From assembly GCA_964016885.1 (NCBI GenBank), contig OZ024742.1:305908001-305972000 (forward strand): a stretch of DNA of 64,000 nucleotides, written 5' to 3'. Below the pieces are notes generated by a model, which saw nothing but the letters and a program-made list of their open reading frames with translations, was not told where the DNA came from and searched no databases. Made by a program: the position numbers and the translations under genes. This document shows positions 21,375-64,000 of the stretch, one piece after another. Source of the stretch: Eledone cirrhosa (taxonomy: Eukaryota). Every line of letters begins with the position of its first letter. Positions within the stretch are counted from its first letter, which is position 1.

Positions 21375-21415
21375 GTGCACCTTTCGTCTTTTTTCTCCAA
21401 CTCTTCTTCGCCAAC

Positions 21416-24400
21416 ATGGCTAGTTTACGAGTTGGAAGCGTGAATGTGCGTGGCGTACGGATGCCCTGGAAACTGGACCAACTTTTAAACGACCTTAGTT
21501 CACACGGTATGGAAGTGATAGCCATCACCGAGTCCAGGATCCACAAGAGGCAGCAACTAACCCCCATCTTCGACGACTTTGAGATCTACCCATCTCTCTG
21601 TCCGCCAGGAGGTGGGGGTGGAGTGACTGTCATGTTTCGGAAGAACCTGGACGTCGAAGTACAGCAAGTACACTTGGACCCGGAGGGTAGACTGGTAGTG
21701 CTGGACGTGAACAGTATTGGAGGTGGAGCCTTCAGACTGGTGGCCGTTTATGCCCCGACCGGGTAATCGCAATCACGGCCAGACTTCTTTAAGCGTCTAG
21801 AGTCTTTTCTGGGAATGTCTCGCTCCTTACTTTTAGTGGGGGACTGGAATGGTATCCTAGATGCACGATGGGACTATGTGGGAGCATGTCCCAGTAGAGC
21901 GGGGTGCAACAGCCTCAACACTTTAAACGGCCAATTCCAACTGGCCGATAGGTATCGACTGGATTTCCCGACTGCATCACAGTGGACTTGGGCAAATCGA
22001 TAGGGTATAGCAGAGAGTTAGCCTTAGAGAAAAACAGAATAGAAAGAGAATTAGTAACCAAGGTAGAGGAGGCACTTAGAAGTGGAAACGGCGCTAGAGT
22101 GTTAGCGTCGAGAACGGCACTGGACCAGTTCTTCGATGCGAAACACGAAGGATGCGTGGTCAGAAGCAAAACACGTGCTATAGGAAACGAAGGAGCGAAA
22201 GCTGTCAGCTGGGCCCGAGTGGCGCAGGAAAAAAGTGGCAACAAGTCCACGGAGGCGTGCTACTTGATTCCAAGCAAATGTACGCGGCCTTTCAGCAGCA
22301 TTTGCGCGACTGTTTGAGCAGAACGACGGTGAGCCGAACGGGGCAATGGACTTTAGTTCATACCTCGGCGGCCTGCCGCGTCTCTTGAACACGGACACTG
22401 AATTCTGGGAAAGACAGATCACGGACACTGAGATACAGGAAGCTCTGGGCCGCTGCGGGAAACGAAAGTTACCCGGTCTAGATGGTCTACCCTATGAGTT
22501 TCACATAGGCATGCCGGACTTGTTCTCTGGCGTCCTCGAAGCCGTCTACTGCAATTGGCAGCAGAACGGGAGAATTCCCAGTTCTGCAGACAAGGGCGTA
22601 GTAACGCTGATAAGGAAAGACGAGAAAAAGGGGGACGAAATTAACAACTTCAGGCCCATAACTCTGCTCAACACAGAGTTAAAGATTTTGGCCAAGGTGC
22701 TAGCGACGAGGTTGGTGCTTGTCGTCGAGAACCTGGTAGGGAAAGCGCAAACGTGTGCAATCTCGAACAGGTCCATACACGACAACCTCCACCTCATACG
22801 ATACATCATAGACAGGGTGGGTAGTAAACCCGGCTTCGGTGGGGCTCTGATCAATTTGGATCAGTCTAAGACATTCGATAGGGTCGACCATCGATACTTG
22901 GAAGCGGTTTTCAAGGCGGCGGGTTTCGGTCCCGTGTTCAGAAGCTGGATCGAGGCGATGCACACCAGCATCTGCACGAGGGTCAAAGTGAACGGCTACC
23001 TATCCGAGCCGTTTGCAATCACGCGTTCCATTCGACAGGGGTGCCCTCTCTTTTCCATTCTGTATGTATTGACTCTAGAGCCACTACTGCGGAAATTGGA
23101 GATGTTGCAGGGCATCCCTCTAGAACCAGGACTGCGCAAAACGGCGTCGGCTTGTGCCGACAACGTGGCGGTAATGGTGTCGTGCACCTTGGAAATCGGG
23201 GTGATGGGCAAATTACTGAAAGAATACGAAACGCTGACGGGAGCAAAACTAAACCCGGACAAGTCTGTCGGTTTGCAACTCGGTACGGGGAGAGGCAAAC
23301 CGATGACGTCCGACAGCGTCGTTGGACGCTGGACGGACGGACCGGTGAAATTGCTCGGAGGTCTGGTTCGGTCCAGACCTCCAGCTGGAGAAAAACTGGA
23401 ACGAGGTCACGGCCAAGGTGTTTGCACTCACCCAGAAGTGGGCAGAGTGCAAACTGTCCTTAAAAGGTCGAGCGGAGGTGGCGAAAACTTTCATAGCGTA
23501 CGCCATCTACTACCGCTTGACTGTCGTGCCTTGTACCCGTGAACACCTCGCTAAGATGGAACGCATGCTCTTCCAGTTTCTGTGGAAGAAGCAGACTCCG
23601 CTGGTGAGGAGATCCGTCTGCTGTCAGCACCCTTCCAACGGAGGGCTGGGAATGCCGTGGCTGATGATGCGCAAATATGCACTGAGGCTGCGGCATCTCC
23701 AGTTATTCCTCACCGACCCCCAACCGGTGTGGGAACCGTTTGTGAGATAGGCTTTCCCACAGCTCGTCTCGCTGACGGAGCTGCAGTCCTGGGTCAAGAA
23801 AAGACCGAAAACGATGGGCGCCTGGCACATTGAATGCGCTCAGGCGCTCACAGTCCTCTGGCAAGCGGGCGCAGCAATCAGTGGAGACCCACTTCGACAT
23901 TTTATAGAGGGATTGTACGTTAGGAAGGCGACGACATACTCGGATAGACTCTGGGCGTCGAAGACTATGAGCTCACCAGTCTGTTTGGTAGGACTTTCCG
24001 GATCTATGGACAACTTCCAGAGGTCCCTGGCCTGGCAATGATACCGAGGAGCTCTACCATTTCGTGACAAGATCTACAGGCACGGACGCCCCGGCAGGGA
24101 TCCTTCCAAGAGGACGTGTCCAAAATGCGCGCAGGACATTGAAACAGTCCTACACGCAATTGTACACTGCCCGGGCGTAACCGACCTTTGGAACTATGCA
24201 GAACAACTGCTGTCGCGTATGGGAAAAATCCAGTTGACTGCTGAGTCCATAGTAAGGATCAAATCACCAGCCTCTTTCAAAAACTAAAGAGAGGCGGTTT
24301 TTCTCTGTACGGTGGCTATGGTGAAAGAGGTTATATGGTGGACGAGATTGAGAGGACTGAGGACAGATGCCTTTCGCCCCGGACAATAATTGATTCCCTT

Positions 24401-27200: not shown

Positions 27201-27647
27201 CCCTTGCTTCTGTTGGACATCACCAGAGGGCGTTAACCCACCGGTGTTTGCATAGCTGCGGCTTCCTAAAACCGTATTTCCTTGGATATACGAAATACTT
27301 ATACCTATTGTATAAAGCTATGCTTGAAGTGAAATCCTATTTCTATTTTCTTATAAGTTGAGCCAACTTATGCAGCTTCATATGGAAATGAGATTAATCC
27401 CCTCATTTACACAAACGAGAAATGTATATATTTTCGCCTGTCTTCTAGTCCAGCAGTCGCAAGCGGTGGGAGGGACCGTCCTGACGAAGGCCAGTTAAGC
27501 CTGAAATGCATAGACGGTTGTCCCCCTTGCTTCTGTTGGACATCACCAGAGGGCCCACCAGTGTTTGCATAGCTATGGCTTCCTAAAACCGAAATACTTA
27601 TACATATTGTATAAAGCTATGCTTGAAGCGAAATCCTATTTATTTTT

Positions 27648-34813: not shown

Positions 34814-35185
34814 CCAGCCAGGAGTGACCGATATGTTGGCATGACCCAGGACAGGTTCAAAACCAGATTTTATGCACATGTCGCTTCTTTTAAACACCCT
34901 GATAAAAGAACAGCAACGGCTCTCGCAAATAAGGTGTGGGAATTCAAGGATAAAAACATCCCGTACTCTATCGATTGGTCTATTTTAGACCATTCGAGGG
35001 AGTACCAAAGGGGCACAAAGAATTGTTCTTTGTGTACCACGGAAAAATTTAGGATTTTACAAAACTTGAAAGCCACTTCAACTTGCCTGAACTCCAAGAC
35101 CGAGATCTTCAGATGTTGTCCTCACCTGAAATCACATCTGATCTGTAACTGGATTGACATTCCTACAATGACTCAACCACCTTGA
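34813..35185 (+). pseudogene. PLE GIY-YIG endonuclease 3' fragment
   Basis: YVGMTQDRFKTRFYAH...TALANKVWEFK...CSLCTTEK...LNSKTEI..CPH; 5' truncated at (TA)n. Confidence 0.85.
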
Positions 35186-37240: not shown

Positions 37241-37297
<57 letters not shown>

Positions 37298-37474
37298 AGA
37301 AGCAAAAAATAGCTTATTGTAATCCAGTTTTTGGTTAAGAAAGCCAGTTTCTTGGATGGTTTCAACGTACGGTTAGGGGTAACTCCACAAGTTTGTAAGA
37401 ATTCCGTTCAATCTTGGAGTATAAGTATAAAAGAGAAAACACAGGTAAGCATTAAGAGAAGGATTTAATCCAGG

Positions 37475-37576
37475 TATTTACGACCGTTTCATTGGTAAGT
37501 GCAACCTTATATTGCTATACTGCAAATAGCAGCCACTTAATTATAATTGTTGTTCACAGTCCAAATTTTCAAAATA
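37475..37576 (-). ncRNA. variant (U3-A8) hammerhead candidate in the PLE pseudo-LTR
   Basis: Reverse complement of the 43978-44079 motif. Confidence 0.5.
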
Positions 37577-37951
37577 GTGATTTACTCTTGAAATAGTTTT
37601 TAATATATAGAGAAAAACATTTATTTGGAATTGTATTTACTAGTATAGAGAGAGAGGAATCAGGAGGTGAGAGGACAGACGGCATAGTATAGAGAGAGAG
37701 GAAGGGGGAAGAGGTAGGAAGTAGAATGACAAACTGAGGGGGAGGTAGGGGTAGAGATGGAAGTATTCTTTGGTCAGTTTTGATAGCAGACATCATGTCG
37801 TGGAGTGTAGTGAGTTAAGGAGAATTAAATAGATAATAGTGGGAGGGAGGGATAGAGAGGGAGAGAGGGAGGGGGGGGGGGAGATATAAAGAGATAAATA
37901 TATATATATACACACATACATACATACACATACACACATATACACACACAT

Positions 37952-37992
<41 letters not shown>

Positions 37993-38037
37993 TATATACA
38001 TACATACACACACACACACATATACACATATATATAT

Positions 38038-38116
<79 letters not shown>

Positions 38117-38329
38117 GATAATAATGACAAAAATAAAAGCAAAGAAGGGGTGAGAAGGAAGAAAGGAAAAGATAGCCAAGAAGAGGGAAGGAAGGAAGAA
38201 AACGAAGAAATAGAAGAGGAATGAGGGAGAAAGTGGGGGGGATATATATATTGGTTTTGTGGGTAATTAAAGGGTCTAGATATAAGAGGGTATAAAGTCT
38301 AAGTATATGCAGTTTGTCAGTTGGTAGTG

Positions 38330-40560
38330 AGAGGTTAAGTGTTCGATTTGTAGTGCGAACATTTCTCTTTGAGTCTATGGTTACAATAAATTGATCTCTC
38401 AATTTTATTGTTGAGTAACCTATTCTTCGAACTTCAGATGTGGAACAGCTCAAGGTTGCATAATCGACAGCTTCTCATACCACTCCGATATGGGGGCGCG
38501 TTTGATAATTTTTTCCTCTTCAGGGTGTATTGATGGTTACTTTCCCTCAGTTGCCAGGTCTTGTTTGCAAGGGTAGTTACATAACGGTGCTGGGAATGTT
38601 TCATTGCGTAACGGTGTGTATACCAACGAGCTTTAAAAGTATTCCCAGTCGCTCCGATGTAATACCATTTCTGGTGTCTGATTCCACTGTGCATTGGTAA
38701 ACCAGGTTAGACTGCATACATTCATTTTGTAATGGACAGGTTTCAGGTAGGTGGCAGTTGCATTTCTTGTTATGGGCAACTTTGGCATTATTTGTGGGCT
38801 GCGATGCCTGAACAAGTGTGTTACGTTTTGTTTGCCTATTAGCGGGTGTTTGTGTATTAGATATTATGTTGTGTTCGGTGGTAATTGTATTGTTATTGTT
38901 GTAAATTTGTGTTTTGGTGTAGTTATGTATCTTTTTAGCGTTAAGCATCTTAACGTGTGCTTCTATATTTGGTGCCGTGGAGTAGGATAGTCTAATAGAT
39001 TTAGTGTTAAGGATTTTGCTGTATCTATGTGAATCCGGAAAGTGCCTATTTATTATTCTAAAGAAAGTAGAGGGTAGGTTAGTACTAATAGAGGTGTTAA
39101 ATATGGGGTTATACCAAATATATTTTCTACTGCGTGACTTGTTTGATTTCGATGTTGTACTTCTATTTGCCGTATACTTTGCGGTTCTATGCGTAAATAT
39201 GTGTATGCGTGTGTTTCTGGAGTTTGTGTTATGCGTGTTCGTGTGTGCTTAACAGAGGCTTTCATCTATATATTCTACTCTATCTAAGTGGCCTGCCTTG
39301 TCTAATGCGGTATTGTAGTATTCTGCATGTTCTTCGAAGATTTGCCGGTTAGATGAGAGGCGGGAGATCCTAAGGGATATGCTGCGTGGAATGGATTTAA
39401 TTATTGATAGTGGGTGGTTTGAGCTACAGTTGATGTATGCTAAGTTCTCATTAATCTTGTAAAAAGGTCTTATAAGTCCCGTATTTAGGTTAAGCGTCAC
39501 ATCTAGAAAGTTAACTGTTTTAGTGCTTTAATGATAAGTTATGCTAAGGGCTAGTTTTCCGAGAGTCTTTCTAATACTCTTACGGAGTCTTTCTATGCTC
39601 TGGTTATTTAGGTTCTTAACTAGGAGAAGGGCGTCGTCTCTGTAGATTCCACCGTGAAGGTCGCTAAACTCGCTTTGTAAACTATGGGCTATGTAAATAC
39701 CTACTAAGTCTGTGACTTGAGCCGAGTCGTTAGCCCCCATCGTGATGTCAAAGTTATTTAATCTATCCTTACGTTCCCAATAGGCGTTTTCAAATTTAAT
39801 TATTGTTTTCCTAGCAGCTAGTATGATTTTTATCTCGTCGTCTGTTATGTCAGAATTGGCTTTGGCGAATGCTAAGGCTTTATCTAAGGTGTTGGGGGAT
39901 ATAGATGAGTAATAATCGTTAATGTCAAATTGTATAAATTTAGATACTTCCTTGTTAGCTATATTGTTAAACCATTTAATTGTTTCGGTAGCGTTACCCC
40001 ATAGTTTAATCACTAGTTTATTCTTCATTTGTGCTATCACTCTGTCTAATATATGTTTACTAATTTTCCCGATGTCCGATTTAGATGGGCATATAAGTCT
40101 AATAGTCGGGTTATAATCAACATTTACCTTGTGGTCCTTGAGGTTAAATGTGGGGGTACATGGCTTAAGTCGTCTATTCCTAGGTGTTTGACTATATTGT
40201 GTGCCTCGTTGTTGATGTTTATCAGTGCCGCCTCATTTGTTTTTTTGTATTTCCTATGTAATTCTTTCCGTATGAAGCTATTGTATGTATTAACATCCAT
40301 CGTATACACATTGGTGGTTCGCAGCTTTTTTATGAATGTATTTATGTCATTCTGGAGTTTATTATTCCTCCGATTTTTGAATTTGATATTCATAATCATC
40401 TTCAGTAAGTCCTGTTCAAAGACATCCAGTTGAGGGTTGGTAGGTGGGTTTTTACACGATTTGAAGCCGTACGTTTCCTTGTTATATTCCACGGTGCGAC
40501 CATTACGTGCTTTGTCGAAATGGAAAGTTTTCCATCTAACTCTGCGTTTTCCATCTAACT
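38330..40560 (-). pseudogene. PLE polyprotein (RT + GIY-YIG), frameshifted
   Basis: FDINDYYSSI, ITMGANDSAQVTDLVG, YRDDAL, SNHP, CNCHLPETCPL..ECMQSNLVY, YIGATGNTFKARW, CRLCNLE. Confidence 0.92.
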
Positions 40561-40591
40561 TTGCTTTTATTTTTGTCATTATTATCTTTAT

Positions 40592-40667
<76 letters not shown>

Positions 40668-40901
40668 TTAGAAACACACAGATACATGCGGACACACACA
40701 TATATACATGAATGCATCCGCACCCAACTGTGAGTTAAGGGTGCCAACTTCACCGATGTTGCTCAATGAATGACTGGGACAGACCAATTCAGTTTGAACC
40801 AGACTAAACCAGTATCAGAGTTAAAAATACATTATGAAGAGAGAAGAAACATTTAGATATAATTAGTAATAAAATGTATCATACCTAAACTGTTCCTAAA
40901 T

Positions 40902-40989
40902 TCCTCGACTACGTAGTTTCGTGGCATAAACAAAAACAATATATCAAAGATATAGAGTCCTTGCGAGGTCTGCCGACTTATCAAGAGGA
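40902..40989 (-). ncRNA. hammerhead ribozyme, U3-A8 core variant (array copy 1)
   Basis: Reverse complement of 42373-42460. Confidence 0.75.
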
Positions 40990-41492
40990 TACCTCATTTT
41001 ACTAGTCTCAAGAACGCGTCTACACGACGTGAGAAAGAATCCCAAAAGGCGGAGGGGGAGATAGTCACGCGATATAACGGTCGAGAAACAGAGCTAAGCC
41101 TCTTATAACCACGAAAAAAATACCACGGAGGCGGAGGGGGTATTCATATCGAGGCCGTAGAAGAGGTAGTGAAGAAGGCGAGAAGTATGAGTAATGGAAG
41201 CTTTCCAGTTGTCCCCACACTTCAAAGATTGCTCGACCAGAGGGAGTTATTAATACATTTAGAAACACACAGATACATGCGGACACACACATATATACAT
41301 GAATGCATCCGCACCCAACTGTGAGTTAAGGGTGCCAACTTCACCGATGTTGCTCAATGAATGACTGGGACAGACCAATTCAGTTTGAACCAGACTGAAC
41401 CAGTATCAGAGTTAAAAATACATTATGAAGAGAGAAGAAACATTTAGATATAATTAGTAATAAAATGTATCATACCTAAACTGTTCCTAAAT

Positions 41493-41580
41493 TCCTCGAC
41501 TACGTAGTTTCGTGGCATAAACAAAAACAATATATCAAAGATATAGAGTCCTTGCGAGGTCTGCCGACTTATCAAGAGGA
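41493..41580 (-). ncRNA. hammerhead ribozyme, U3-A8 core variant (array copy 2)
   Basis: Reverse complement of 42373-42460. Confidence 0.75.
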
Positions 41581-42372
41581 TACCTCATTTTACTAGTCTC
41601 AAGAACGCGTCTACACGACGTGAGAAATAATCCCAAAAAGCGGAGGGGGAGATAGTCACGCGATATAACGGTCGAGAAACAGAGCTAAGCCTCTTATAAC
41701 CACGAAAAAAATACCACGGAGGCGGAGGGGGTATTCATATCGAGGCCGTAGAAGAGGTAGTGAAGAAGGCGAGAAGTATGAGTAATGGAAGTTTTCCAGT
41801 TGTCCCCACACTTCAAAGATTGCTCGACCAGAGGGAGTTATTAATACATTTAGAAACACACAGATACATGCGGACACACACATATATACATGAATGCATC
41901 CGCACCCAACTGTGAGTTAAGGGTGCCAACTTCACCGATGTTGCTCAATGAATGACTGGGACAGACCAATTCAGTTTGAACCAGACTGAACCAGTATCAG
42001 AGTTAAAAATACATTATGAAGAGAGAAGAAACATTTAGATATAATTAGTAATAAAATGTATCATACCTAAACTGTTCCTCCGCATGTATCTGTGTGTTTC
42101 TAAATGTATTAATAACTCCCTCTGGTCGAGCAATCTTTGAAGTGTGGGGACAACTGGAAAGCTTCCATTACTCATACTTCTCGCCTTCTTCACTACCTCT
42201 TCTACGGCCTCGATATGAATACCCCCTCCGCCTGCGTGGTATTTTTTTCGTGGTTATAAGAGGCTTAGCTCTGTTTCTCGACCGTTATATCGCGTGACTA
42301 TCTCCCCCTCCGCCTTTTGGGATTATTTCTCACGTCGTGTAGACGCGTTCTTGAGACTAGTAAAATGAGGTA

Positions 42373-42460
42373 TCCTCTTGATAAGTCGGCAGACCTCGCA
42401 AGGACTCTATATCTTTGATATATTGTTTTTGTTTATGCCACGAAACTACGTAGTCGAGGA
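42373..42460 (+). ncRNA. hammerhead ribozyme, U3-A8 core variant (array copy 3)
   Basis: TCCTC-TTGATAA-GT c GGCA [insert] TGCC AC-GAAA-CTACGTAG-TC-GAGGA. Confidence 0.78.
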
Positions 42461-42962
42461 ATTTAGGAACAGTTTAGGTATGATACATTTTATTACTAAT
42501 TATATCTAAATGTTTCTTCTCTCTTCATAATGTATTTTTAACTCTGATACTGGTTCAGTCTGGTTCAAACTGAATTGGTCTGTCCCAGTCATTCATTGAG
42601 CAACATCGGTGAAGTTGGCACCCTTAACTCACAGTTGGGTGCGGATGCATTCATGTATATATGTGTGTGTCCGCATGTATCTGTGTATTTCTAAATGTAT
42701 TAATAACTCCCTCTGGTCGAGCAATCTTTGAAGTGTGGGGACAACTGGAAAGCTTCCATTACTCATACTTCTCGCCTTCTTCACTACCTCTTCTACGGCC
42801 TCGATATGAATACCCCCTCCGCCTCCGTGGTATTTTTTCGTGGTTATAAGAGGCTTAGCTCTGTTTCTCGACCGTTATATCGCGTGACTATCTCCCCCTC
42901 CGCCTTTTGGGATTCTTTCTCACGTCGTGTAGACGCGTTCTTGAGACTAGTAAAATGAGGTA

Positions 42963-43050
42963 TCCTCTTGATAAGTCGGCAGACCTCGCAAGGACTCTAT
43001 ATCTTTGATATATTGTTTTTGTTTATGCCACGAAACTACGTAGTCGAGGA
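42963..43050 (+). ncRNA. hammerhead ribozyme, U3-A8 core variant (array copy 4)
   Basis: Same sequence as 42373-42460. Confidence 0.78.
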
Positions 43051-43119
43051 ATTTAGGAACAGTTTAGGTATGATACATTTTATTACTAATTATATCTAAA
43101 TGTTTCTTCTCTCTTCATA

Positions 43120-43183
<64 letters not shown>

Positions 43184-43214
43184 ATATGTGTGTGTGTGTG
43201 TATGTATGTATATA

Positions 43215-43250
<36 letters not shown>

Positions 43251-43255
<5 letters not shown>

Positions 43256-43609
43256 GAAGATAAACACAGAATATTCGAAAATATTCTGTATGTTTATAAT
43301 AAACATTTTGAAGACCTAATCGCTATAGAATAGAATACGTCACGTATTACAATTTGAGATTCTCGATAAAAGCAAGGGAAGTAACCTACGCGTTTCATTC
43401 TTATTAGAAATCATCAGGATTACATATCCAGTGCTTTTATCGAGAATGACACAGCTAGAGACTTATAGAATACTTAGCTGTGTACAGGAACTGGTTTGAA
43501 AGAGCGGTTGCCGGTCCGGCAGAAATTAGAATTTGGATTTAATGCTCTGAAATAGCGATATATATATGTGAAGATAAACACAGAATATTCGAAAATATTC
43601 TGTATGTTT
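43251..43609 (-). mobile_element. retrozyme-like ~314-bp unit with 45-bp terminal direct repeats
   Basis: TATGTGAAGATAAACACAGAATATTCGAAAATATTCTGTATGTTT at 43251 and 43565; contains a hammerhead. Confidence 0.7.
43381..43423 (-). ncRNA. minimal type-I hammerhead ribozyme
   Basis: Minus: GTAATC-CTGATGA-t TTCT aata AGAA t-GAAA-CGCG-TA-GGTTAC; enclosed by a 16-bp inverted repeat 43359-43374/43432-43447. Confidence 0.88.
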
Positions 43610-43977
43610 GTGTGTGTATATGTGTGTATGTGTATGTATGTATGTGTGTATATATATATTTATCTCTTTATATCTCCCCCCTCTCTCTCTCTGCCTCTCT
43701 ATCCATCCCTCCCACTATTATCTATTTAATTCTCCTTAACTCACTACACTCCACGACATGATGTCTGCTATCAAAACTGACCAAAGAATCCTTCCACCTC
43801 TACCCCTACCTCCACCTCAGTTTGTCATTCTACTTCCTACCTCTTCCCCCTTCCCCTCTCTCTATACTATGCCGTCTGTCCTCTCACCTCCTGATTCCTC
43901 TCTCTCTATACTAGTAAATACAATTCCAAATAAATGTTTTTCTCTATATATTAAAAACTATTTCAAGAGTAACTCAC

Positions 43978-44079
43978 TATTTTGAAAATTTGGACTGTTA
44001 ACAACAGTTATAATTGAGTGGCTGCTATTTGCAGTATAACAATATAAGGTTGCACTTACCAATGAAACGGTCGTAAATA
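43978..44079 (+). ncRNA. variant (U3-A8) hammerhead candidate in the inverted pseudo-LTR
   Basis: TATT-TTGAAAA-t TTGG [branched insert] CCAA t-GAAA-CGGTCG-TA-AATA. Confidence 0.5.
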
Positions 44080-44140
44080 CCTGGATTAAATCCTTCTCTT
44101 AATGCTTACCTGTGTTTTCTCTTTTATATATATATATATA

Positions 44141-45263
44141 TAGCTTAGAGTTTAGACTCAATGGGGTCATTTACAATCATTTCAGCTCTAAGAATCGCTT
44201 CTGAGCAGAATAAATTAATATTTGATGAACATTTACATGTTTTAGTTGCAATTGACTAATAAAATCGCTAGAATGAAATATCTTAATTCAACAACTTAAA
44301 GTTTGCCTGTACGATCTAAAAAATAATAAATCACTACTCACAGACTCATATGGACAATTAGTTAATTATTTCACTATTATACCATCCTTTGTGAAACATG
44401 TTTGAAGTTTGAAGTTCTGACCGATCTGCGGAAAAAGTTTGTATTTTGAATTTTAAACGTGTCTAGGTACAAAGGCTTTTTGCCCATATGAGTCTGTGAG
44501 TATTGATTTATTATTTTTTAGATCGTACAGGCAAACTTTATGTTGTTGAATTAAGATATTTCATTCTAGCGATTGTATTAGTCAATTGCAACTAAAATAT
44601 GTAAATGTTCATCAAATATTAATTTATTCTGCTCAGAAGCGATTCTTAGAGCTGAAATGATTGTAAATGACCCCATTGAGTCTAAACTCTAAGCTATTTA
44701 TCACTGCTCCCCCAGGTGAGCTGAATTTGTAATCCCATATAAACGGCTGTTATTTCTAGCACTATGTGTGGGACGTTAGAGGACTGGAATAAGCCGTGTG
44801 CAAAACCTCATGTATTTTCGCTACGCTAACCAGACCTTAGATATTTTTCTGAGGTGGAGTTTTGTAATTTTATCTGGGTACCTATTGATAAACACAGAAA
44901 AAGTTGATTAACTCACTGCTAATTAGTTAATTATTTCACTATTATACCATCCTTTGTGAAACATGTTTGAAGTTTGAAGTTCTGACCGATCTGCGGAAAA
45001 AGTTTGTATTTTCAATTTTAAACGTGTCTAGGTACAAAGGCTTTTTGCCCATATGAGTCTCTGAGTATTGATTTATTATTTTTTAGATCGTACAGGCAAA
45101 CTTTATGTTGTTGAATTAAGATATTTCATTCTAGCGATTTTATTAGTCAATTGCAACTAAAACATGTAAATGTTCATCAAATATTAATTTATTCTGCTCA
45201 GAAGCGATTCTTAGAGCTGAAATGATTGTAAATGACCCCATTGAGTCTAAACTCTAAGCTATT
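44141..45263. repeat. 564-bp-period direct repeat with an inverted ~215-bp copy
   Basis: 44357-44699 repeats at 44921-45263; 44141-44357 is the reverse complement of about 44480-44696. Confidence 0.9.
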
Positions 45264-45371
45264 TTGAAAATGTTATTTATTCATTATAAAAATTAAATGA
45301 TACCATTCTATATGTAGGTATGCCCCTTCATCTGACAACTAATACTTTTAGATCTAGACCGCCAATGTATA

Positions 45372-45467
<96 letters not shown>

Positions 45468-45488
45468 TATATATATATATATAGTTAT

Positions 45489-45610
45489 AATATAGATGAG
45501 ATTCTACAGGACTAGAACTGTTTCATTCTTTAGAAATCATCAGGAATTCTGATTCCTGATGATTTCTAAAGAATGAAACAGTTCTAGTCCTGTAGAATCT
45601 CATCTATATT
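45489..45610. ncRNA. perfect palindrome of two divergently oriented hammerheads (45500-45548 minus, 45551-45599 plus)
   Basis: GATTC-CTGATGA-t TTC taaa GAA t-GAAA-CAG ttctagtc CTG-TA-GAATC; 59-bp arms, 4-nt loop. Confidence 0.85.
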
Positions 45611-46215
45611 AAAACTTTTATACTCTGCAATGTATTGAGTACCTTACTTACTGTGGTTACCTCCGATTCAACCCGGAATAACGTATATATATTTTTTTTT
45701 TTTGTTCACCCCGTTTGTAAAATAAGTTGGATTACTTTGAAAAAACAACGAATGAATATTACATAATGTATGTGCTAAATTTCGTGGCTGTTGATTAAAT
45801 ATATTTTATAGCTTATTTAAAGATCTTTAAAATTTAATTCTTTAAAATTATCAAATGTCAACACTTCCGGTTAGCGGCCGTTATATTATAACATTTATAA
45901 TCGAATATATTTCCGTCGCTAATTTCTCCTAATGCATTTTATATATAATGTCGTCTTTTTTTTTATATATCTGGATTACTGATTACAGAAGACAGTGTAA
46001 CATAGGCTTTGTTCAATTTCTGTGTATATTCTCAATTACGATTTTATTTGATGTATCATATTTACATGCATATACATTTGTGTATAATATCAATATACAC
46101 TCTACACATGCTAGTAAATATAATGCCAATCATTGTAAGTTTGAATCGAATTGACATTCAAAAACATATATATAGAAATAAGGTAAGCCCAAATTATAGT
46201 AGATTCAAATATCAC

Positions 46216-51381: not shown

Positions 51382-51429
51382 AGATTCCTGATGATTTCTA
51401 ATGAATGAAACAGTTCTAGTCCTGTAGAA

Positions 51430-51432
<3 letters not shown>
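51382..51432 (+). ncRNA. type-I hammerhead ribozyme (same family as 45551)
   Basis: AGATTC-CTGATGA-t TTC taat GAA t-GAAA-CAG ttctagtc CTG-TA-GAATCT, then (TA)n. Confidence 0.85.
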
Positions 51433-51505
<73 letters not shown>

Positions 51506-51512
<7 letters not shown>

Positions 51513-51726
51513 ATGTAAGTTATCGCCGTATTTTGACTAAAGAAATTAAAGAAAATTATTTAGCCTGATAGTGGGGTTAAGAATCCTCAGAGAAATGGAA
51601 AAAGATGAGAATTGACGTACTACTCATCTTTTTCCATTTCTCCGAGTGTTCTTAACACCACTATCAGGCTAAATAATTTTCTTTAATTTCTTTAGTCAAA
51701 ATACGGCGATAGCTTACATTTATAAT
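51506..51726. repeat. ~105-bp-arm foldback between (TA)n tracts
   Basis: 51506-51610 pairs with 51623-51726 with few mismatches. Confidence 0.9.
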
Positions 51727-54120: not shown

Positions 54121-56451
54121 TCTTTGAGTCTCAGTCATTGATGTTATTTAACTGGAAGGTTTGTTGAAATGAATATCAAGCCGCTACCTGCAGCCTCAGA
54201 TATTCAGGACGTATCGGAGGGTTCTCGCTGTTCCCAGCAAGCATGCCTTTTGAAGTGTTCCAAAAAGCGGGGCTGGACTAACTTTCTTTAACCATCCTTG
54301 GAAACTCTTTGAGATAGTATCTACTGCGCCTATGACAATCGAGACGACTCTGACTTCATGGCAGTTCCAAATCCTTTTTACCTCCCACTTTAATACCTGG
54401 TATCAGTTAATTTTCTCCCTCTCCTTTTCTTGCACTCTCGTGTCAAATGGGCAGTTTCTCCGTCTGTATCCTAAAATCCCATAGCACCTTCACCTGATCG
54501 TTTTCTATTGCCGACTCTGGCTTATGCTCATACTTCTCAGAATGTGGTGAATTGTTTACTTTGCATAGGTGCCAGTGGATCACCCTGCCCATCACATCAT
54601 GTCTCCAGCCTTTATAGGGAGACTGGGCTAGATGTTTACACTCGGATATAATGTGAGCCACAGTCTCCTCTCTCTCCCCACAGATCCTACACAGATCCTA
54701 CACTAGCCTTCTCCTTATAAATATGTTGTTTCAGCCACTTCGTTTTGGGTGCCTGCTCTTGCGCAGCCATTATCATTCCTTCTGTAGCCTTTTTAAGGTG
54801 TCCTCTTTTTAACCAGTTCCATGACTGTGGATCTCTAAATTCAGTTTTCTCAAAGAAGGTACTATGAGGGGATTTTCGTGAACGTTGCTCTTCCTCATTG
54901 TTGTTATTTCCTCCTTGGACATCCCCTGGTCTATTGTTCTCTCCTTCAGTACCATTCTGAGCATTGGCTCCCTACTGTCGGTCACGTATTTGTGCAGGTT
55001 GTTTTTTCTCCATCTGAACACAGTCCTCTATTCTGATAAGACCTCTTCCACCTTCAGATCTCTTTAAGTAGAGTCTATCGACATCACTCCTCTTGTGGAA
55101 CATGTTGTAGATAGTCAATAGCTTCCTAGTCTTCCTATCCATTTCTTTTTGTTCAGCAACATTCCATTTCAGAATTCCCGCACTGTACCTAATAATAGAC
55201 ACAGCTCGGGAATTCACTGCACTTATGGCATTCCTACTATTTAGATGTGATTTTAATGCGCTCCTTACTCTCCTAATGTAGTCAGATCTTATCAATGCCT
55301 TCATTCTTTTGTTGTTGTTTTCATCCAGAACACCTAAATATTTGTATCCTTTATCAGCTCACCTGTTAGTACTTGGATTCCGTTGTTTCTGCTCAATTTA
55401 CCCCGCTTCATCACTAGGACTCCACACTTATTAATACAAAATTGCATACATATATCACTGCTGAAAATACGGAAAGTGTCAACAAGTACATCCAACTCCT
55501 TCTCACTCTTCTCAAAGAGTTTAAGATCGTCCATGAAGTGGAGGTGGTTGATGGTAAGCTCTCCTTTTCCCAACCTGTATCCTGCTCTCACTTTTCGTAG
55601 TATAATGGTCAGGAGTATCAGGGCAAGGACAAACAACAGAGGGGACAGACTATCTCCCTGGAAGAGACCTCTCTTGATATTCACGCCTCCCAAGGATTCT
55701 CCACCCGATGTTAATTCTGTTTCCCAGGACTTCATACTTTTGCTCAACAACTGTCTGATGTTATCTGACAACTTGAAGATCTCTAGGATTTTGGTTATCC
55801 AAGAATGAGGTACCATGTCGAATGCTTTTTTGTAGTCTATCCATCACATGGCAAGACAGCGTGTCTCCTCTTGTAATTCCTCATTACCTTCTTATCAATA
55901 AGTAGTTGGTCTTTTGTACCACGGGACTTCTTTCGGCATCCTTTCTGTTCGTCCGGGTAATAAGTTGTTTGTGTGGAGGTGATGGTAGATTTCCTCAGAC
56001 TCAATGCTTGTTAACAGTTTCCACATTACGGATAGAGATGTGATAGGTCTATAGTTGGTAATATCATTACCCTTGATTCGGTATTTCATTACCAGGACTG
56101 TGGTACCTTTTGTCAACCACTCTGGTACCTCACCCGACATCAAGCAGTCATTGAACATGGTTGTCAGTTTCGGGTGGTAGGATATTATATGTTTAATCCA
56201 ATACCCCTCACACCATCTGGGCATGGTGATTTCCAGTTGGTTAGTTTTGGCCTGCCGTTTAAGAGTTTCAACTGTGATACTTAAATCAGTTTGTTGGTGT
56301 GCTTGTTCACTAATCTCCTTTTGTACTGTTTCAATCCATACTGCCTGGTCATTGTATTCAACGTCCTGCTCCCATATTCCACTCCAGCATGTCTTAGTCA
56401 GTTCCGCCTCAAGAATAAAGTCGTTGCTTCTTCCTTTCCCTTCAATCTGCC
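54121..56451 (-). mobile_element. R4/Dong-type RLE LINE, family A, 5'-truncated and decayed
   Basis: NYRPITSL, GLFQGDSLSPLLF, HLHFMDDLKLF, LYLKRSEGGRGL, HIISEC...RHD; (TAA)n at both ends. Confidence 0.9.
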
Positions 56452-56488
<37 letters not shown>

Positions 56489-56510
56489 GTTATTATTATT
56501 AGTAGTATTA

Positions 56511-57181
56511 TTACAGCTGCATTTATTTTGCTTTATGTTCATACGAGTTATCACCAAGTCACAACCAGTGACCTCAAGAGACAACAAGGTCCGCCATGTT
56601 CAAGAAAGAACATACATACTCACACATGCATCTTTAGGTGTTTAGACTTGTGATGTACTTATATTGACAGAATCTTCCTTAGTATATGGGCAGTTCCCAT
56701 TAGTACTATATTTTGTATTTCTCCTATACGCGGGTTTCCTGGGATTAATCCAATTGTTGCAGTTTTCAATGCAATGTCTAACTGGATTAACCCACGTCTT
56801 CCTTCTTTCCTAGGGAGATACATTCTATCTATATCTGCCTTAGGGTGATGCATTCTGTGCATGGTTAAGAATGTTCGAATGTTTGTATCGAGCCTACGGA
56901 TCTCTGTGCTTGACCAGTTGATGACATTGTAACTGTAGGTTACTACTGGTATGGCAAGCGTGTTTATGGCATCGATCCTATTCTTGCATTCAATTCCGTT
57001 GTTAAGATTGCTCTTACTCTGCGGTAACATTCATTCCTTATCCTTTCCCTCATTGTCGAGTGCTTGATTCCGTCTCCTTCACAAACACCTAGATATTTGT
57101 AAGTTTTTTCCGGTATTTCTTGGTCACGGGGTTTTCTTTTTTGTTGTTTTTTAAATAGTTATTATCATGAGTGGTTCCTTA
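56511..57181 (-). mobile_element. internally deleted derivative of R4/Dong family B
   Basis: 3' end matches 57200-57432 and is joined to sequence matching 58326-58692; (TAA)n on both sides. Confidence 0.85.
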
Positions 57182-57199
57182 ATTATTATTATTATTATT

Positions 57200-59810
57200 A
57201 CAGTTGCATTTATCTTGCTTTATATTCATACGAGTTATCACCAAGTCACAACCAGTGACCTCAAGAGACAACAAGATCCGCCATGTTCAAGAAAGAACAT
57301 ACATACTCACACATGCATCTTTAGTGTTTAGACTTGTGATGTACTTATATTGACAGAATCTTCCTTAGTATATGGGCAGTTCCCATTAGTACTATCTTTT
57401 GTATGTCTTCTATACGCGGGTTTCCTGAGATTTGCGATAAGTAATCATTAGACCCCTTAGGTATCATTCCCAGAGAGCCTACAACCACTGGTATTGTTTT
57501 AGTTCTCAATTTCCACATTTTTCCAATTTCTATCTCCAGGTCCTTATACTTGCTCAATTTTTCAAATGTTTTTATAGATACATTCTTGTCTATTGGAACA
57601 GACATATCAATTAGCAGACATACCCGCTTTTTAAAGTCCTTCAATATTATATCAGGTCTATTTGCATCTATTTTTCGGTCTGTTTGGATGCTAAAGTTCC
57701 ACAAGATTGAGATCTGATCTTTTTCAAGTATGGGAGGTGGTTGATGCTCCCACCAATTCTTTTGATGGGGCAGGTCAAAATGCTTACACATTATCCAATG
57801 TATGTATTGTGCAGCTCTGTCATGCCTGTTTAGGTATTCGGTTGGAGCTATAGGACTGCACATTGAAATTATATGGTCAATGGTCTCTGGTTGTTTTTTG
57901 CATACACGGCATAATGGGCTGCATCCATTTTTTATTATGTTGGCTTGGTAATTTTTTGTTGGCAGACACTGATCTTGTGCTGATATAATCAGTCCTTCAG
58001 TCTCCGATTTCAGTCCAGAGGATGCCAACCACTGATGGGTTAAAGTTTTGTCAACATCAGGATTGTTAGCTCGCTCTGGGTATTTTCCATACAGAGGCTT
58101 TTCTTGCCATTTCTTAGCCAGTTTCTGTACAGTTCTTTCTTTGCAGTTACTTTTACCTGCTTTGCTTTTTCTGTGTTTTCCATTTCAGCAGTAAATGGGA
58201 CTTCTGAAATTTGTAGCCATTACTGTATCTTTGTGCATCTTTTGTAATGGAATTTGATCTTTTGATGCTTTCGTGTTTCAAAACGAGTTTGATCATCCAA
58301 TCATGTGATTCCCTTAGATATGTAGATAATCCAAATGTTCCAGTTTTCAACGCAATGTCTAACTGGATTAACCCACGTCCTGCTTCTTTCCTAGGGAGAT
58401 ATATTCTATCTATATCTGCCTTAGGGTGATGCATTCTGTGCATGGTTAAGAATTTTCGAATTTTTGTATCGAGCCTACGGATCTCTGTGCTTGACCAGTT
58501 GATGACATTGTAACTGTAGGTTACTACTGGTATGGCAAGCGTGTTTATGGCATCGATCCTATTCCTTGCATTCAATTCCGTTCTTAAGATTGCTCTTACT
58601 CTGCGGTAACATTCCTTCCTTATCCTTTCCCTCATTGTCGAGTGCTTGATTCCGTCTCCTTCACAAACACCTAGATATTTGTAAGTTTTTTCTTGATCAA
58701 GTTCTCTTATCACGTTCCCCCGATCAAGATTAATGTCTGAACTCTTCAGCAGCTTTCCTCTGGTGAACGTTGCTTTGGCGCATTTATCTAGTCCAAACTC
58801 CATTTTAATGTCATCACTGAACTGCTCCACAGTGGATTATAGCCCTTGCAATTGTTCATCATTTCTTGCAAATAGTTTCAGGTCATCCATGTAAAACAGG
58901 TGATTAATGGTTTTGTCATAGACTTTATATCCATGTTTTGTTTCATTGAGCATTTTACTTAATGGTATAAGTGCGATGCAGAATAAAAGCGGTGATAAAG
59001 AGTTATCCTGAAAAATTCCACAATTAATATTAACTTCTCCAGCTTCCAGTGATTTTGTTTCACTATTCAAAAGGAGTGTCGTTTTCCATGTCTTCATACT
59101 GATTGACAAAAACCTCCTGACAACGGAGGATATTTTGAAAATCTCTAAACATTTTTCAATCCAACTGTGTGGCAAACTATCGAATGCTTTTTTATAATCT
59201 ATCCAAGCAATTGATAGGTTTTTGTCTATTTTGACAATCTTCCAGTATCATTTTGTTAACCAAAAGCTGATCCTTACAGCCATATGAGCCTCGTTTACAC
59301 CCTTTCTGCTCAATGGGAAATAGGTCATTTGTTATCAGGTGGTCATATGTGTATTCAGTTAGGACTGATGTTAAAATTTTATACATTGTGGTCAAGCAAG
59401 TTATCGGTCTGTAATTTTTGGGATTGTTTGTCTCATCATTCTTCGGAAGTAGGAATGTAATGCCGTTAACTAGCCATGATGGTATCTTTTCTGGCTCCTT
59501 AACTATTTCATTGTAAAGTTGGGCTAACAGCTCATGAGACTCTGTGAAGGCATTTATCCAAAAGTTTTGTATTTTGTCTTTTCCTGGGGATTTCCATTGG
59601 TTGGTTTTTCTTAGAGCCAAGCGCAACTGTTCAACTGTTATATTTTCCCATGTTTGTTCCTCAAGGTGAGCTGTATCTTTCATTTGTCTGTCTATCCATG
59701 GGGCATAATTTCCCAGAATTCTTGCACTTCCTCCTTGGGTGGTATTGATTTAGCAGTTATTGTTGACTTACCAATTTTTCTGTAGAAGTTTCTTTGGTTG
59801 TTTTTGAACA
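57200..59810 (-). mobile_element. R4/Dong-type RLE LINE, family B, 5'-truncated
   Basis: NYRPITCL, GIFQDNSLSPLLF, HLFYMDDLKLF, CRVC..ETIDHIISMC, RHD, RPDII, K..KY; few frameshifts; (TAA)n flanks. Confidence 0.93.
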
Positions 59811-60180: not shown

Positions 60181-62053
60181 TTGTCTCATGCAGACATTCA
60201 TTTCCCGCCATTACCAATGACTGCAGGTGTTAAAGCCTCCACCACCACCACCACCGCGACAACCACCACCACCACCGCGACAACCACCACCACCACCGCG
60301 ACAACAGAAACAAAAGAAGAAAAAAATAAATTAACTCGTGATGTCGAAATGAAATCAAGCAAAATGGACTCTTCCCCACCAAACACGACTGACGTCACCA
60401 CCACCACAACTGAAACTAAAATTAATATTAACACAAATAACGATAGCAACAACAACAACAATGACATTATAAAAACGCCCCTCAGTTTTGCAATAGTAGC
60501 AAAACAGTTCGAAGCATATACGGTAACTCAGGAAGATTTAGAAAATGCCAAACAAATGGTAAAGAAAGATGGGTACAGGGTCAGCCCCCCCCCCCACCTA
60601 ATAAAATGGAGCATCGGCGCCTATGCACCGTGTCGTATAGAACAATAAATGTAAATTCGCGGCGAGTGGACGGGCATCCGAGTCCCAAATCCAAAAAGCT
60701 TTGGGACATGTGTGGGCAAGAAAAACCCACATCAGACGTGGGCAAAAGTATGGAACCGTGGACGTGTTCTTTGAAACACCAGAGGAGGCTAGAGAACACT
60801 CCATGGCCCCATTAAAAAGTGACGACTTCACACTCGTCCCAAGCTATTGTGGCCAGAGACTCGTAAAGATCAGGGTGACCCACGTTCCACCGGCCATCGA
60901 AATTCCCTGGCTAATAGCGGCCGTCCTCGCCGGCATCGAAGCCAACACGAAAATAATAGCAATAGCAAAAGAAAAGCAGGAAAACTGGTCCGGATCTGGG
61001 ATGGAGCTCCTGATCCAAGCGGACCAAAAAAGCATTGAGGAGATCCCAGAGGTAATAGACCTCACTGACGGCAGCCACCTCACGGTAATTGTCGAGGGCA
61101 GAAGACCTAGGTGTGTCGTTTGTGGTGAAGGAACCCACCTAAGGGCTTTCTGCCCTCAGGCTAAAAGGTTGAGGCCACCTCTCCTACCCACCCCAGTGAC
61201 ACAACCATCAACACCACCAGTAGCAGAGATGGCAGCAACAACTGTAGCAGCAACAACAGAAGCAACTATAACAGCAACAACCCCAGCAACAGTAGCAAAA
61301 CCAACACCACCACAACCACCAGCAAAACCAACACCACCACCACCCAACGCTTCAGAACTAGCACCAGCGCCTACACCATCCACCACGCCACAACCAAAAC
61401 TAACGGCTGTGGAGGATTTTCCACTTCCCGGCCTATCACAACTGGAGACAGATTGTGACGACGAGGAGTGGGAAACGATATCCGGAAAAAAAAAAAGAAA
61501 CCAAAAAAGAAAAAATTCTCTTCCTTCCCCCTCCAAAAACAAAATACAGAGGGAAACAAATAAATTAACAAACAAAAAAGTTAGGACAGATATGCCACCA
61601 TCCACACCAGCATCACCAACCCCATCAACCCAAACACCAACACCATCACCATCATTAACCCCAACACCACCATCACCTACACCACAAAAGTCACCAAAAT
61701 GCGAAACAGAAACAAACCCACAACAAACGCAAACAAAACAAAACAACCAAAACGATACACACTACACAGCATTAAATTTGAACAACAAGCAATTATTACA
61801 CTACATCCAACACAACACCAGCATCACAGAAAAAGACTACACAACAACCCCAAAATTCACACCACCTCAACACATACAAATCACTCGCATCACACAGAAA
61901 ACGTACATGACACTAAAACAAAAAATCCCCAAAGACATCGGAGACTTCCGACAAGCACTCTCCAGGAGGATTTATAAGGACATCCTTCCTGAGGAGGCCA
62001 CAAGCAGTGAAAAGGATGGAAAAACCGTCCTTCCTCTACGAGAAGTAAGGTAA
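60181..62053 (+). pseudogene. Tx1 ORF1, frameshifted near the poly-C at 60585-60595
   Basis: CX2CX4HX4C knuckle, Pro/Thr-rich region, similarity to copy-1 ORF1. Confidence 0.82.
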
Positions 62054-62087
62054 GTGGTCTTTCCCATCTTTTCCACTCCTTTTCAAC

Positions 62088-64000
62088 ATGACCTCACTCA
62101 GAATAGGCAGCATAAATGCGCGTGGCTTGGGGTCGTCATGGAAGCAGGGCCACCTGCTCAATGACCTCAGGTCACTAAACATAGATGTAGTGGCCATCAG
62201 CGAGACCAGAATCTCCGAAGCACAGGCTTTCGCACCGATCTTCGGCGGCTACGATGTGTACGCATCTCCCAGCCGTCCGGGATCGGGGGGAGGAGTTGCT
62301 GTGCTTTTTCGGAGAGGTTTGGATCTTGCCATACGGGCCATCTTCCTGGACCCAGAAGGTAAGTTTGTGGTGCTGGACATGACCAGCGGAGACGGGCAAG
62401 CTTTCAGGTTAGTGGCCGTCTATGCCCCGACAGGAGCAGGCGGCCTGATTTCTTCCGGCGTCTGGAGACCTTTCTTGGAACGTCCCGCTCTTTAGTGTTA
62501 GTGGGCGACTGGAACGGGATCTTAGATGCACGCTGGGATTGTGTGGGATTAGTGGATAGGGAAGGAGGGTGCAAGAGTCTCACCAACCTGCTCAGACGTT
62601 TTGAACTGTCTGACAGGTACCGAATGGATTTCCCGAATGTACCAATGTGGACTTGGACAAATCGCATAGGGTCATCCAGATCATATCTAGATAGAGTATT
62701 TTGTAGGGAAATAGATAGGTCTAGCATAGGCTGTCCACAATTCAAGATAGTCAGCTACACGGACCACAAATTCGTGATCTGTGTGCTTGACTTAGATAGG
62801 CTTCATAGACGAGGACCCGGCTACTGGAAGCTATAACGCGTCCTTACCAGCGCGCAAGGCCTACAGAGACCGGATTAGCGAACAAGTTAAGCGGGCGTTG
62901 ACGGGGGCCATCGTCAACAACAAGTGGTGGTTTGCTCTGAAAAGAGCAATTAGAATAGAGTCCATTAGGTTTAGTAAGACTTTAGCAATAGAGAAAAATA
63001 GAGCAGAGGGAGAATTAGTTAGAAAATTAGATGAGGCGCTTAGCAAAGGCATCGCGACCGACGTACTTGCGGCGAAATTGACCCTTGACCAATTCTTCAA
63101 TGCAAAGCACGAAGGCTGCGTTGTCAGAGCTAGGGTGCGTGCTCTCAGACACGAGGGGACGAAAGCCGTTCAAAGGGCCCGAGTGGCGGAGGTGCGTCGT
63201 GGCAACAAAGCCACGATCCGGTCTTTGGTGGACCACGACGGGCGCATGCTACTCGATTCCGGGCAAATGTGTGAAGCTTTTCAGCGACACTTCGCTCAAC
63301 TGTTCGGGGGCAGTGGCGGGCCGGATCGAGGGATGGACTTTAATGTCTACCTCGACGGACTGCCGCGGCTTTCGGCCACTGAGGCGGAGTGTTGCGAAAA
63401 GCCGATAACAACCGCTGAAGTACGGGATGCAATGACTAGTTGCACAAGGGCTAAATCGCCTGGTTTGGATGGTCTGCCCTATGAATTTACGTACAAATGC
63501 CAAACTTGTTCGGAGGCCTCTTGGCGGACGTCTACTGCAACTGGCAACAGAACGGGAGAATTCCCAGCTCTGTGAGCCGAGGAGCGGTGGCGCTGCTGAG
63601 AAAGGATCCGAACAAGGGGGATAACATAGATAATTTTAGGCCCATAACTCTGCTAAACACAGAGTTCAAGATTTTGCCCAAGGTGCTAGCAAAGAGGTTG
63701 GCGCTTGTCGTTGGTGGTCTGGTGGGAGAGGCACAGACATGCGCCATTCCCGACAGATCCATCCACGACAACCTCCACCTCATGCGATACATCGTAGAGA
63801 GGGTAGCTAGGGAACCTGGCACGGGTGGGTCTTTGATCAATTTAGATCAGTCGAAAGCCTTCGATAGGGTCGACCATCGTTACCTAGCGGCAGTCCTGAG
63901 GGCGGCTGGCTTTGGGCCCGTCTTCAGAGGCTGGATCGCTGCCATGCACAGCGACATCTGCTCTGTAGTGAGAGTCAACGGTCACCTTTCGAAACCGTTC
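62088..64000 (+). pseudogene. Tx1 ORF2 (APE + start of RT), frameshifted
   Basis: ORF pieces 62088-62495, 62495-62836, 62898-63575 and RT motifs to the window end. Confidence 0.9.

Follow-up and report, generated by a model that had tools for sequence, protein, structure and literature searches.

Animal non-LTR retrozymes are tandem units a few hundred bp long that lack ORFs, have a GC content below 45% and carry one type I hammerhead each; they occur in thousands of copies, their RNA is predicted to be strongly self-paired, and they coexist with PLEs (PMC7229834; bioRxiv 10.64898/2026.07.22.740005). Copying from circles by PLE RTs has been proposed (PMC7229834), and unit sizes of 51-972 bp and an origin from pseudo-LTRs (pLTRs) have been described (bioRxiv 10.64898/2026.07.22.740005). 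PLEs themselves produce inverted copies with a tail of 30-40 bp, often at one end alone, by a mechanism that was left open (PMC8557442); self-priming on an antisense template was proposed for their inverted repeats (PMC3846280). The Hydra clade of PLEs is marked by RWK, DKT and CxCX5C motifs and targets (TA)n (PMC8557442, section 11). In vitro, a PLE protein extended both strands from two internal sites, and a dimer was predicted (PMC11167929).

The locus described here lies in a window of 64,000 nucleotides of Eledone cirrhosa DNA (contig OZ024742.1, assembly GCA_964016885.1), to which all positions refer. By all DNA-level criteria its 591-bp unit is a PLE-dependent non-LTR retrozyme, with the retrozyme features listed above, and it differs from described retrozymes in its U3-A8 hammerhead core, 57-nt stem II, (TA)n targeting and two fixed 3' ends. 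Over half of the unit's sampled insertions are head-to-head, whereas the word "inverted" is absent from the covered text of PMC7229834, and that of bioRxiv 10.64898/2026.07.22.740005 treats monomers, dimers and multimers alone. With the inverted pLTRs of EN+ PLEs (PMC8557442, PMC3846280) the unit shares a 5'-truncated inverted copy in head-to-head order, an often one-sided tail and microsatellite targets, but its tail is 165 nt, not 30-40, it has no ORF and arrays of several units can make up both arms. For the unit the one-sided tail has been counted, and self-priming is contradicted for 9 loci. The in vitro system of PMC11167929 (Poseidon PAc) is alike in its two internal starts bounding a tail, in the cutting and extension of both strands, in its AT-rich targets and in the predicted dimer; its start sites lack target homology and show no strand difference, whereas here AUGUAU matches (TA)n and the two sites are paired, each on its own strand. 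With Hydra-clade PLEs (PMC8557442, section 11) the unit has (TA)n insertion, hammerheads and the motif after the start sites in common; unlike them, it encodes nothing, and it has no significant overall alignment to three Hydra families.

We regard it as probable that the window locus is a recent insertion of this ORF-less, hammerhead-bearing retroelement into a (TA)n tract and, jointly with this, that the unit is a non-autonomous retrozyme for which a Hydra-clade PLE enzyme primed both nicked target strands, using two fixed start positions on a single RNA that was probably a circle.

The inverted array and its host element

The inverted array, which a sequence-only reading had proposed, was confirmed by self-BLAST. 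The period was 591 bp (40662-41488 versus 41253-42079, 99.5% identity), and 40827-41874 matched 43125-42079 in inverted orientation with 99.5% identity over 1048 nt, in agreement with the near identity claimed for the copies. Compared with one reference unit, the four copies carried 7 substitutions and 1 deletion. The ~2.4 units and ~1.8 inverted units of the reading were found as 2.40 and 1.77, with the junction at 42079; the gap between the arms, put at ~207 bp, is present and measures 204 nt. Features are listed below, with unit positions counted from the ribozyme cut.

37293..38143, minus: 3' pseudo-LTR of the host PLE, with a ~130-nt tail and an uninterrupted internal microsatellite, the pre-insertion state
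38335..40555, minus: host, a decayed Hydra-clade PLE ORF with RT and C-terminal GIY-YIG, stops and frameshifts; ends approximate
40595..40664: left (TA)n target flank, belonging to the internal microsatellite of the host PLE
40662..42079, minus: left arm, 1418 nt (2.40 units)
40662: RNA 3' end of the left arm, site B (unit nt 245), joined to (TA)n
40902..40989, minus: predicted hammerhead, predicted cut 40907/40906
41493..41580, minus: predicted hammerhead, predicted cut 41498/41497
42079..42079: head-to-head junction, 1-nt microhomology, no hairpin; position as given by the assembly
42079..43125, plus: right arm, 1047 nt (1.77 units), beginning at unit nt 215
42114..42136, plus: RCTC...YYGAGY bipartite motif just 3' of site B
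42373..42460, plus: predicted hammerhead, predicted cut after 42455
42540..42602, plus: RCTC...YYGAGY bipartite motif just 3' of site A, kept in the sister family
42963..43050, plus: predicted hammerhead, predicted cut after 43045
43125: RNA 3' end of the right arm, site A (unit nt 80), joined to (TA)n
43123..43253: right (TA)n/(TG)n target flank
43244..43609, minus: separate 314-bp hammerhead unit within the same microsatellite as the array
43558..44134, plus: outer part of the inverted, tail-less pseudo-LTR of the host; inner part ~40559-40607

In the left arm the ribozyme lies on the minus strand, in the right arm on the plus strand, and the RNA 3' ends of both arms consequently face outward. 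The 5' end of the left arm lies 9 nt past a predicted cut site. Outer array ends usually abut (TA)n in the sampled loci, and a target-site duplication is unreadable within (TA)n. Unit GC is 41.6% (246/591), and array ORFs reach at most 86 aa, stop to stop. The unit had been called long for a retrozyme; at 591 nt it exceeds the 150-450 bp of PMC7229834 and falls within the 51-972 bp of bioRxiv 10.64898/2026.07.22.740005.

Each unit carries a predicted type I hammerhead, UUGAUAA...GAAAC-UACGUA-GUC, found in four window copies by hand and then by script; the sequence-only reading had named a ribozyme and given no position for it. Its parts are stem I (UCCUC/GAGGA), the core UUGAUAA, the 57-nt stem II, GAAAC, a palindromic helix III and the GUC cut site, with U3-A8 instead of C3-G8 in the core. 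In an Rfam search of the unit the hammerhead was unmatched at the gathering threshold and at E<=10. In Schistosoma PLEs, U3-A8 covariation was reported and dimeric folding was proposed for motifs with a weak helix III (PMC4209133). The Cercyon PLE hammerheads of that source are alike in core covariation and in a palindromic helix III suited to dimers, but are mostly single motifs; the hammerhead described here belongs to a tandem unit that is mobile, and its stem II is long. A helix III dimer is predicted at -14.3 kcal/mol. Taken alone, the ribozyme does not stand out in fold stability (z -0.75), and core bases are paired in its minimum-energy structure, which counts against the favoured model. 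Folded as a circle, the unit gave z -7.3 for the ribozyme strand versus -1.2 for the antisense (40 shuffles each). Ribozyme core and stem positions were identical in the sister family at 44/44 positions versus 419/532 elsewhere (p = 9e-5), the sister comparison being used and a within-family test being biased by locus choice. The predicted fold asymmetry and the ribozyme conservation were counted in favour of RNA-level selection on the unit.

The RWK, DKT and CxCX5C motifs were read in translations of intact relatives of the host PLE (L112, L115, L129), and its clade was assigned by motifs; Pfam gave no match over the cut-off for 6 PLE ORF pieces. The inverted host pLTR is in two pieces, so the array and the separate 314-bp unit landed in its microsatellite. 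The 314-bp unit has a canonical CUGAUGA core (43367-43432, minus; Rfam HH9, 19.9 bits, below threshold) and a 52-bp direct repeat, and belongs to a different retrozyme-like family. The host pLTR itself contains a candidate U3-A8 hammerhead, UUGAAAA...GAAAC-G-GUC (37470-37600, minus, and 43955-44085), with a stem II of ~90 nt and an indistinct stem I.

Other repeats were seen in the window. A repeat that is direct plus inverted occupies 44136-45264; its period is 565 bp, its copies are 97-99% identical, and a one-sided tail of ~110 nt lies beside TA. A 134-bp near-perfect palindrome at 45483-45616, with a relative at 51383-51517, consists of two inverted pieces of a hammerhead-bearing unit. By eye, 20255-23542, 55337-59749, 60641-64000 and 34814-35185 are other non-LTR retrotransposon remnants, with RT- and endonuclease-like ORFs, and a GIY-YIG fragment. 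No host gene was evident by eye in the window, where long ORFs resemble other retroelements.

Pairing of the two start sites

The 3.0-Gb genome contains 6967 exact matches to a 24-nt ribozyme motif, which is a lower bound. Site A junctions (unit nt 80 with TA) number at least 2506 genome-wide and site B junctions (nt ~245) at least 679 plus at least 1184, for two phases of the pattern. Part of the unit was also found in 20 sequencing runs, coded as 17 organisms. The first 80 loci studied were the 40 best-scoring, including the window, and another 40 taken from the 50 loci to which the first 100 motif matches belong; a further 60 were drawn from the site-A junction list, selected solely by the site-A end. 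More than one unit was present at 107/135 loci, head-to-tail arrays reached 7.2 units, and young arrays were ~99.9% homogeneous.

The search for other inverted arrays gave 48 inversions in the first 80 loci, all 48 head-to-head and 0 tail-to-tail, and the palindrome proved routine rather than rare. Outer ends were A/B in 45 inversions (one duplicated locus and one sister-family locus included), A/A in 0 and B/B in 0, and 3 inversions had one off-site end. Single arms in the same loci (n = 35) ended at A in 14 cases, at B in 20 and elsewhere in 1. Since single arms use both sites, about half of the pairs would be same-site by chance. The 60 site-A loci comprised 31 with an inverted B arm, 0 with an A arm, 1 with an off-site arm, 23 single and 5 unparsed; 32/55 parsed loci in this sample were inverted. 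The non-redundant A/B pairs numbered 74 and same-site pairs 0, with four further inversions having one off-site end. Independent site choice would give ~0.5^74 by our own arithmetic. The palindrome is present in over half of the sampled family copies, and the window locus is ordinary for its genome.

An assembly artefact, which the sequence-only reading had allowed for, is another reading of the inversion. We find it scarcely credible: the two flanks differ and rebuild the inverted pLTR of the host, 74 loci with different junctions follow one rule, and short-read contigs of run X2 hold five other joints from left to right arm at depth 8-24 (the letters between are not known).

A sister retrozyme family (L220-L244) was retrieved with a query from beyond the ribozyme; over the 576 positions covered, its identity is 80%. 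It is older, with 1825 first-look candidates and periods of 508-594 bp, and has the same ribozyme and start sites. Its 24 distinct loci, picked with a B-region query, comprised 16 A/B pairs, 1 clean B/B pair (L233), 2 irregular pairs and 5 single arms. In one irregular pair (L243) an arm ends ~9 nt past B without TA, and the other has one off-site end. The A/B pairing rule is strong, not absolute. Coding Hydra PLEs had a one-sided tail in all 6 loci with both ends readable (of 20), as does the host in the window. An automatic tail scan gave 68 tail, 10 same-end and 70 other calls; it was noisy, miscalled L200 and L203, and was excluded from the statistics.

Each site ends with AUGUAU, which matches the TA flank, and is followed by the RCTC...YYGAGY motif, a candidate RT-binding element. 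Next to site B this motif is similar to the part of the 5' UTR that separates site B from the ATG in coding Hydra PLEs, and it was present after site B in those coding Hydra families whose 5' region was read. It was also found after site A in 13/25 other repeat families versus 0.6 in shuffled sequence, having been picked by eye on the very tails that were then scored. Whole-region alignment of the unit with the pLTRs of three Hydra families was not significant.

The order hammerhead, site A, tail, site B and post-B motif is that of a Hydra pLTR, and the PLE ORF of the window lies ~107 nt from the array. The unit could accordingly be read as the pseudo-LTR of a coding PLE, its arrays being truncated insertions, as had been considered from the sequence. 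We judge this very improbable. The neighbouring PLE has its own pLTR, unrelated in sequence to the 591-bp unit. Units follow head-to-tail up to 7.2 times with no ORF; a PLE coding match occurred in 17/80 loci and, leaving aside the host in the window, the nearest lay ~290 nt away from its array; and the post-B motif followed by the Hydra ORF start had 0 genome matches to one strict pattern. No unit directly flanking an RT-EN ORF was found in the 80 + 25 loci screened, out of thousands. An nhmmer search for a coding parent over 1.2 Mb returned pieces of the family and the sister family alone, and 25 sister loci gave 3 distant, partial PLE matches alone. Descent of the unit from a pLTR is likely.

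Template, priming and joining

Of the processes weighed, two-site priming of both strands on a probably circular RNA is the one we favour. In outline, as in known retrozymes, transcripts of the arrays would cleave themselves as hammerhead dimers and close into circles. Two RCTC...GAGY elements would be bound by a PLE RT-endonuclease, which is probably dimeric and would nick each strand of (TA)n. Synthesis would begin at nt 80 on one strand and at nt 245 on the other; the ends at these positions are observed, and priming there would occur at an AUGUAU matching the TA flank. Both RTs would then roll beyond one unit and halt at random, as the lengths and stops indicate, and the two cDNA ends would be joined by short microhomology, as seen at the junctions. 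Priming of a single strand alone would yield a plain tandem array.

The arms share one haplotype, which counts for one template. They disagreed at 7/569 polymorphic-site comparisons versus 19.6% when permuted (0/2000 permutations), and 23 rare variants were common to both arms across 43 loci. This test rests on 20 older loci because the 23 youngest are identical at polymorphic sites, and subfamilies active at different times could inflate the agreement. An arm was longer than one unit in 55/74 pairs. Fifteen locus-rare variants were present in every one of at least 3 units, five of them in 7-8 units in both arms of L109. These variants and the arms longer than one unit favour a monomer as the template.

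The shared haplotype is also accounted for if one arm was copied from the other or from antisense RNA (PMC3846280), by self-priming or fold-back, or if the DNA was later duplicated in inverted form. Near-palindromic junctions fit such copying and were seen in 6/74 pairs, which is not above chance (p = 0.19). In 9/74 pairs each arm has at least 20 nt that are missing from the other, so neither is a copy of its partner, and these loci contradict fold-back. The longer arm can be either one (39 versus 35 of 74), lengths are uncorrelated, and 5' ends are unrelated. Fold-back also gives no reason for outer ends at fixed, differing sites, and we consider it improbable. The 74 junctions comprised 50 with 1-11 nt of microhomology, 10 blunt, 13 with inserts and 1 with a larger overlap. 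At one single-arm locus (L043:5303-5400) the 5' end joins an inverted duplication of the target flank, which suggests a second strand folded back on flank DNA.

In L1 twin priming, two primers from opposite strands give a head-to-head product with a microhomology junction. The unit differs in having no poly(A), a fixed second site, non-adjacent breakpoints and arms that overlap in sequence. Breakpoints within 50 nt were found in 10 and 12 of 45 cases (p = 0.23, 0.07), and L1-type priming was rejected, since 5' ends are unrelated to the start of the other arm and breakpoints are not adjacent. Of the origin first suggested for the palindrome, a single recent insertion from a multimer-generating RNA, with both strands primed and PLE-related, still stands; L1-type twin priming does not, nor does a template switch in at least 9/74 loci.

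A variant at the window, C461A, is present in one unit per arm in mirror register. It counts against a monomer circle, which leaves a mirror-register variant unexplained, and its source could be gene conversion, a multimeric template or a polishing error. Fold-back would account for it as well. A dimer circle, once drawn from C461A, was dropped, as the allele is seen at this locus alone. Three partly shared variants in L062 and L066 have registers other than mirror.

The same two-site, two-strand priming could have acted on a linear RNA, a multimer transcribed from a homogeneous genomic array and either left uncleaved or cleaved at its 5' end, in which case no circle would be involved. In favour of such a template are C461A, the 3/213 arms that end exactly at the cut and the ~99.9% homogeneity of young arrays. 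Uncleaved RNA was also the main substrate in PMC11167929, where no difference in start sites between strands was seen; these data count against the favoured model. However, mirror register was found in 1/4 partly shared variants, versus 70 private ones, locus-rare variants fill all 7-8 units of L109, stops lie within 30 nt in a common register in 4/74 pairs alone, and arms do not end at the cut more often than expected (p = 0.27). We consider the linear template unlikely, though credible. An excess of 5' ends just past the cut, 7/90 (p = 0.04), faded to 11/213 (p = 0.14) and was abandoned. Self-closing contigs of the unit in runs X1 (621 nt) and X8 (620 nt), at depth ~8, fit a circle or a DNA tandem equally; the library kind of both is unrecorded and may be DNA or RNA.

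A young Hydra family (L200-L203; genome G000, C1:30666000, C2:97069700, C4:360340500 and C1:90900500) has 784-aa open frames and 98-100% identical repeats. It is a candidate active enzyme, with a putative role as partner of the unit. Hydra PLE open frames in the genome measure 784-801 aa.

Sequence variation and meaning for the family

Common polymorphisms on the ribozyme strand comprised 33 A/G versus 11 C/T (p = 9e-6). Polarised with the sister family as outgroup, they gave 19 A>G, 9 G>A, 6 T>C and 4 C>T. A/G sites paired with U in the predicted fold at 25/33, compared with 112/248 purines. A>G made up 16/53 template-level rare variants (30%) versus 9/184 private ones (5%). T>C likewise accounted for 15/53 template-level variants, and the strand asymmetry was not significant (p = 0.09). 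As a lead, these data fit A-to-I editing written back into DNA, and they also fit RT error or selection for pairing that tolerates G-U.

Retrozyme-like families are packed densely into this genome. About 1.2 Mb of array-masked sequence gave 100 type I hammerhead motif matches, 82 C3-G8 and 18 U3-A8, and many unrelated hammerhead families, often as inverted pairs, were seen in the flanks of L031-L199 and in the window at 27481, 31899 and 35843.

For PLEs, the mechanism of tandem or inverted insertion with a tail was named as unresolved (PMC8557442), and the idea that PLEs mobilise retrozymes from circles has so far been treated as a hypothesis (PMC7229834; bioRxiv 10.64898/2026.07.22.740005). 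With thousands of near-identical events, a small RNA with two mapped starts and intact candidate enzymes, both questions are directly testable. The one-sided tail on inverted PLE repeats is already published, and the pairing counts are apparently new: literature titles and abstracts, with few subscription papers covered, held no report of inverted retrozyme arrays or site-pairing counts.

We put forward tentatively a wider reading, in which PLE integration would be an asymmetric two-primer reaction with one start site per target strand, a circular template would turn it into double rolling-circle palindromes, and A-to-I write-back would drive evolution of the family. If true, one complex would hold one RNA at two duplicated binding elements, and asymmetric priming would explain the inverted repeat and one-sided tail of PLEs generally. 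By extrapolation, roughly 1,400 double rolling-circle palindromes would exist in the genome. Whatever their origin, the many kilobase palindromes of the family are a possible source of dsRNA and of fragile sites. The value of the finding lies in the pairing rule across the family rather than in the single locus.
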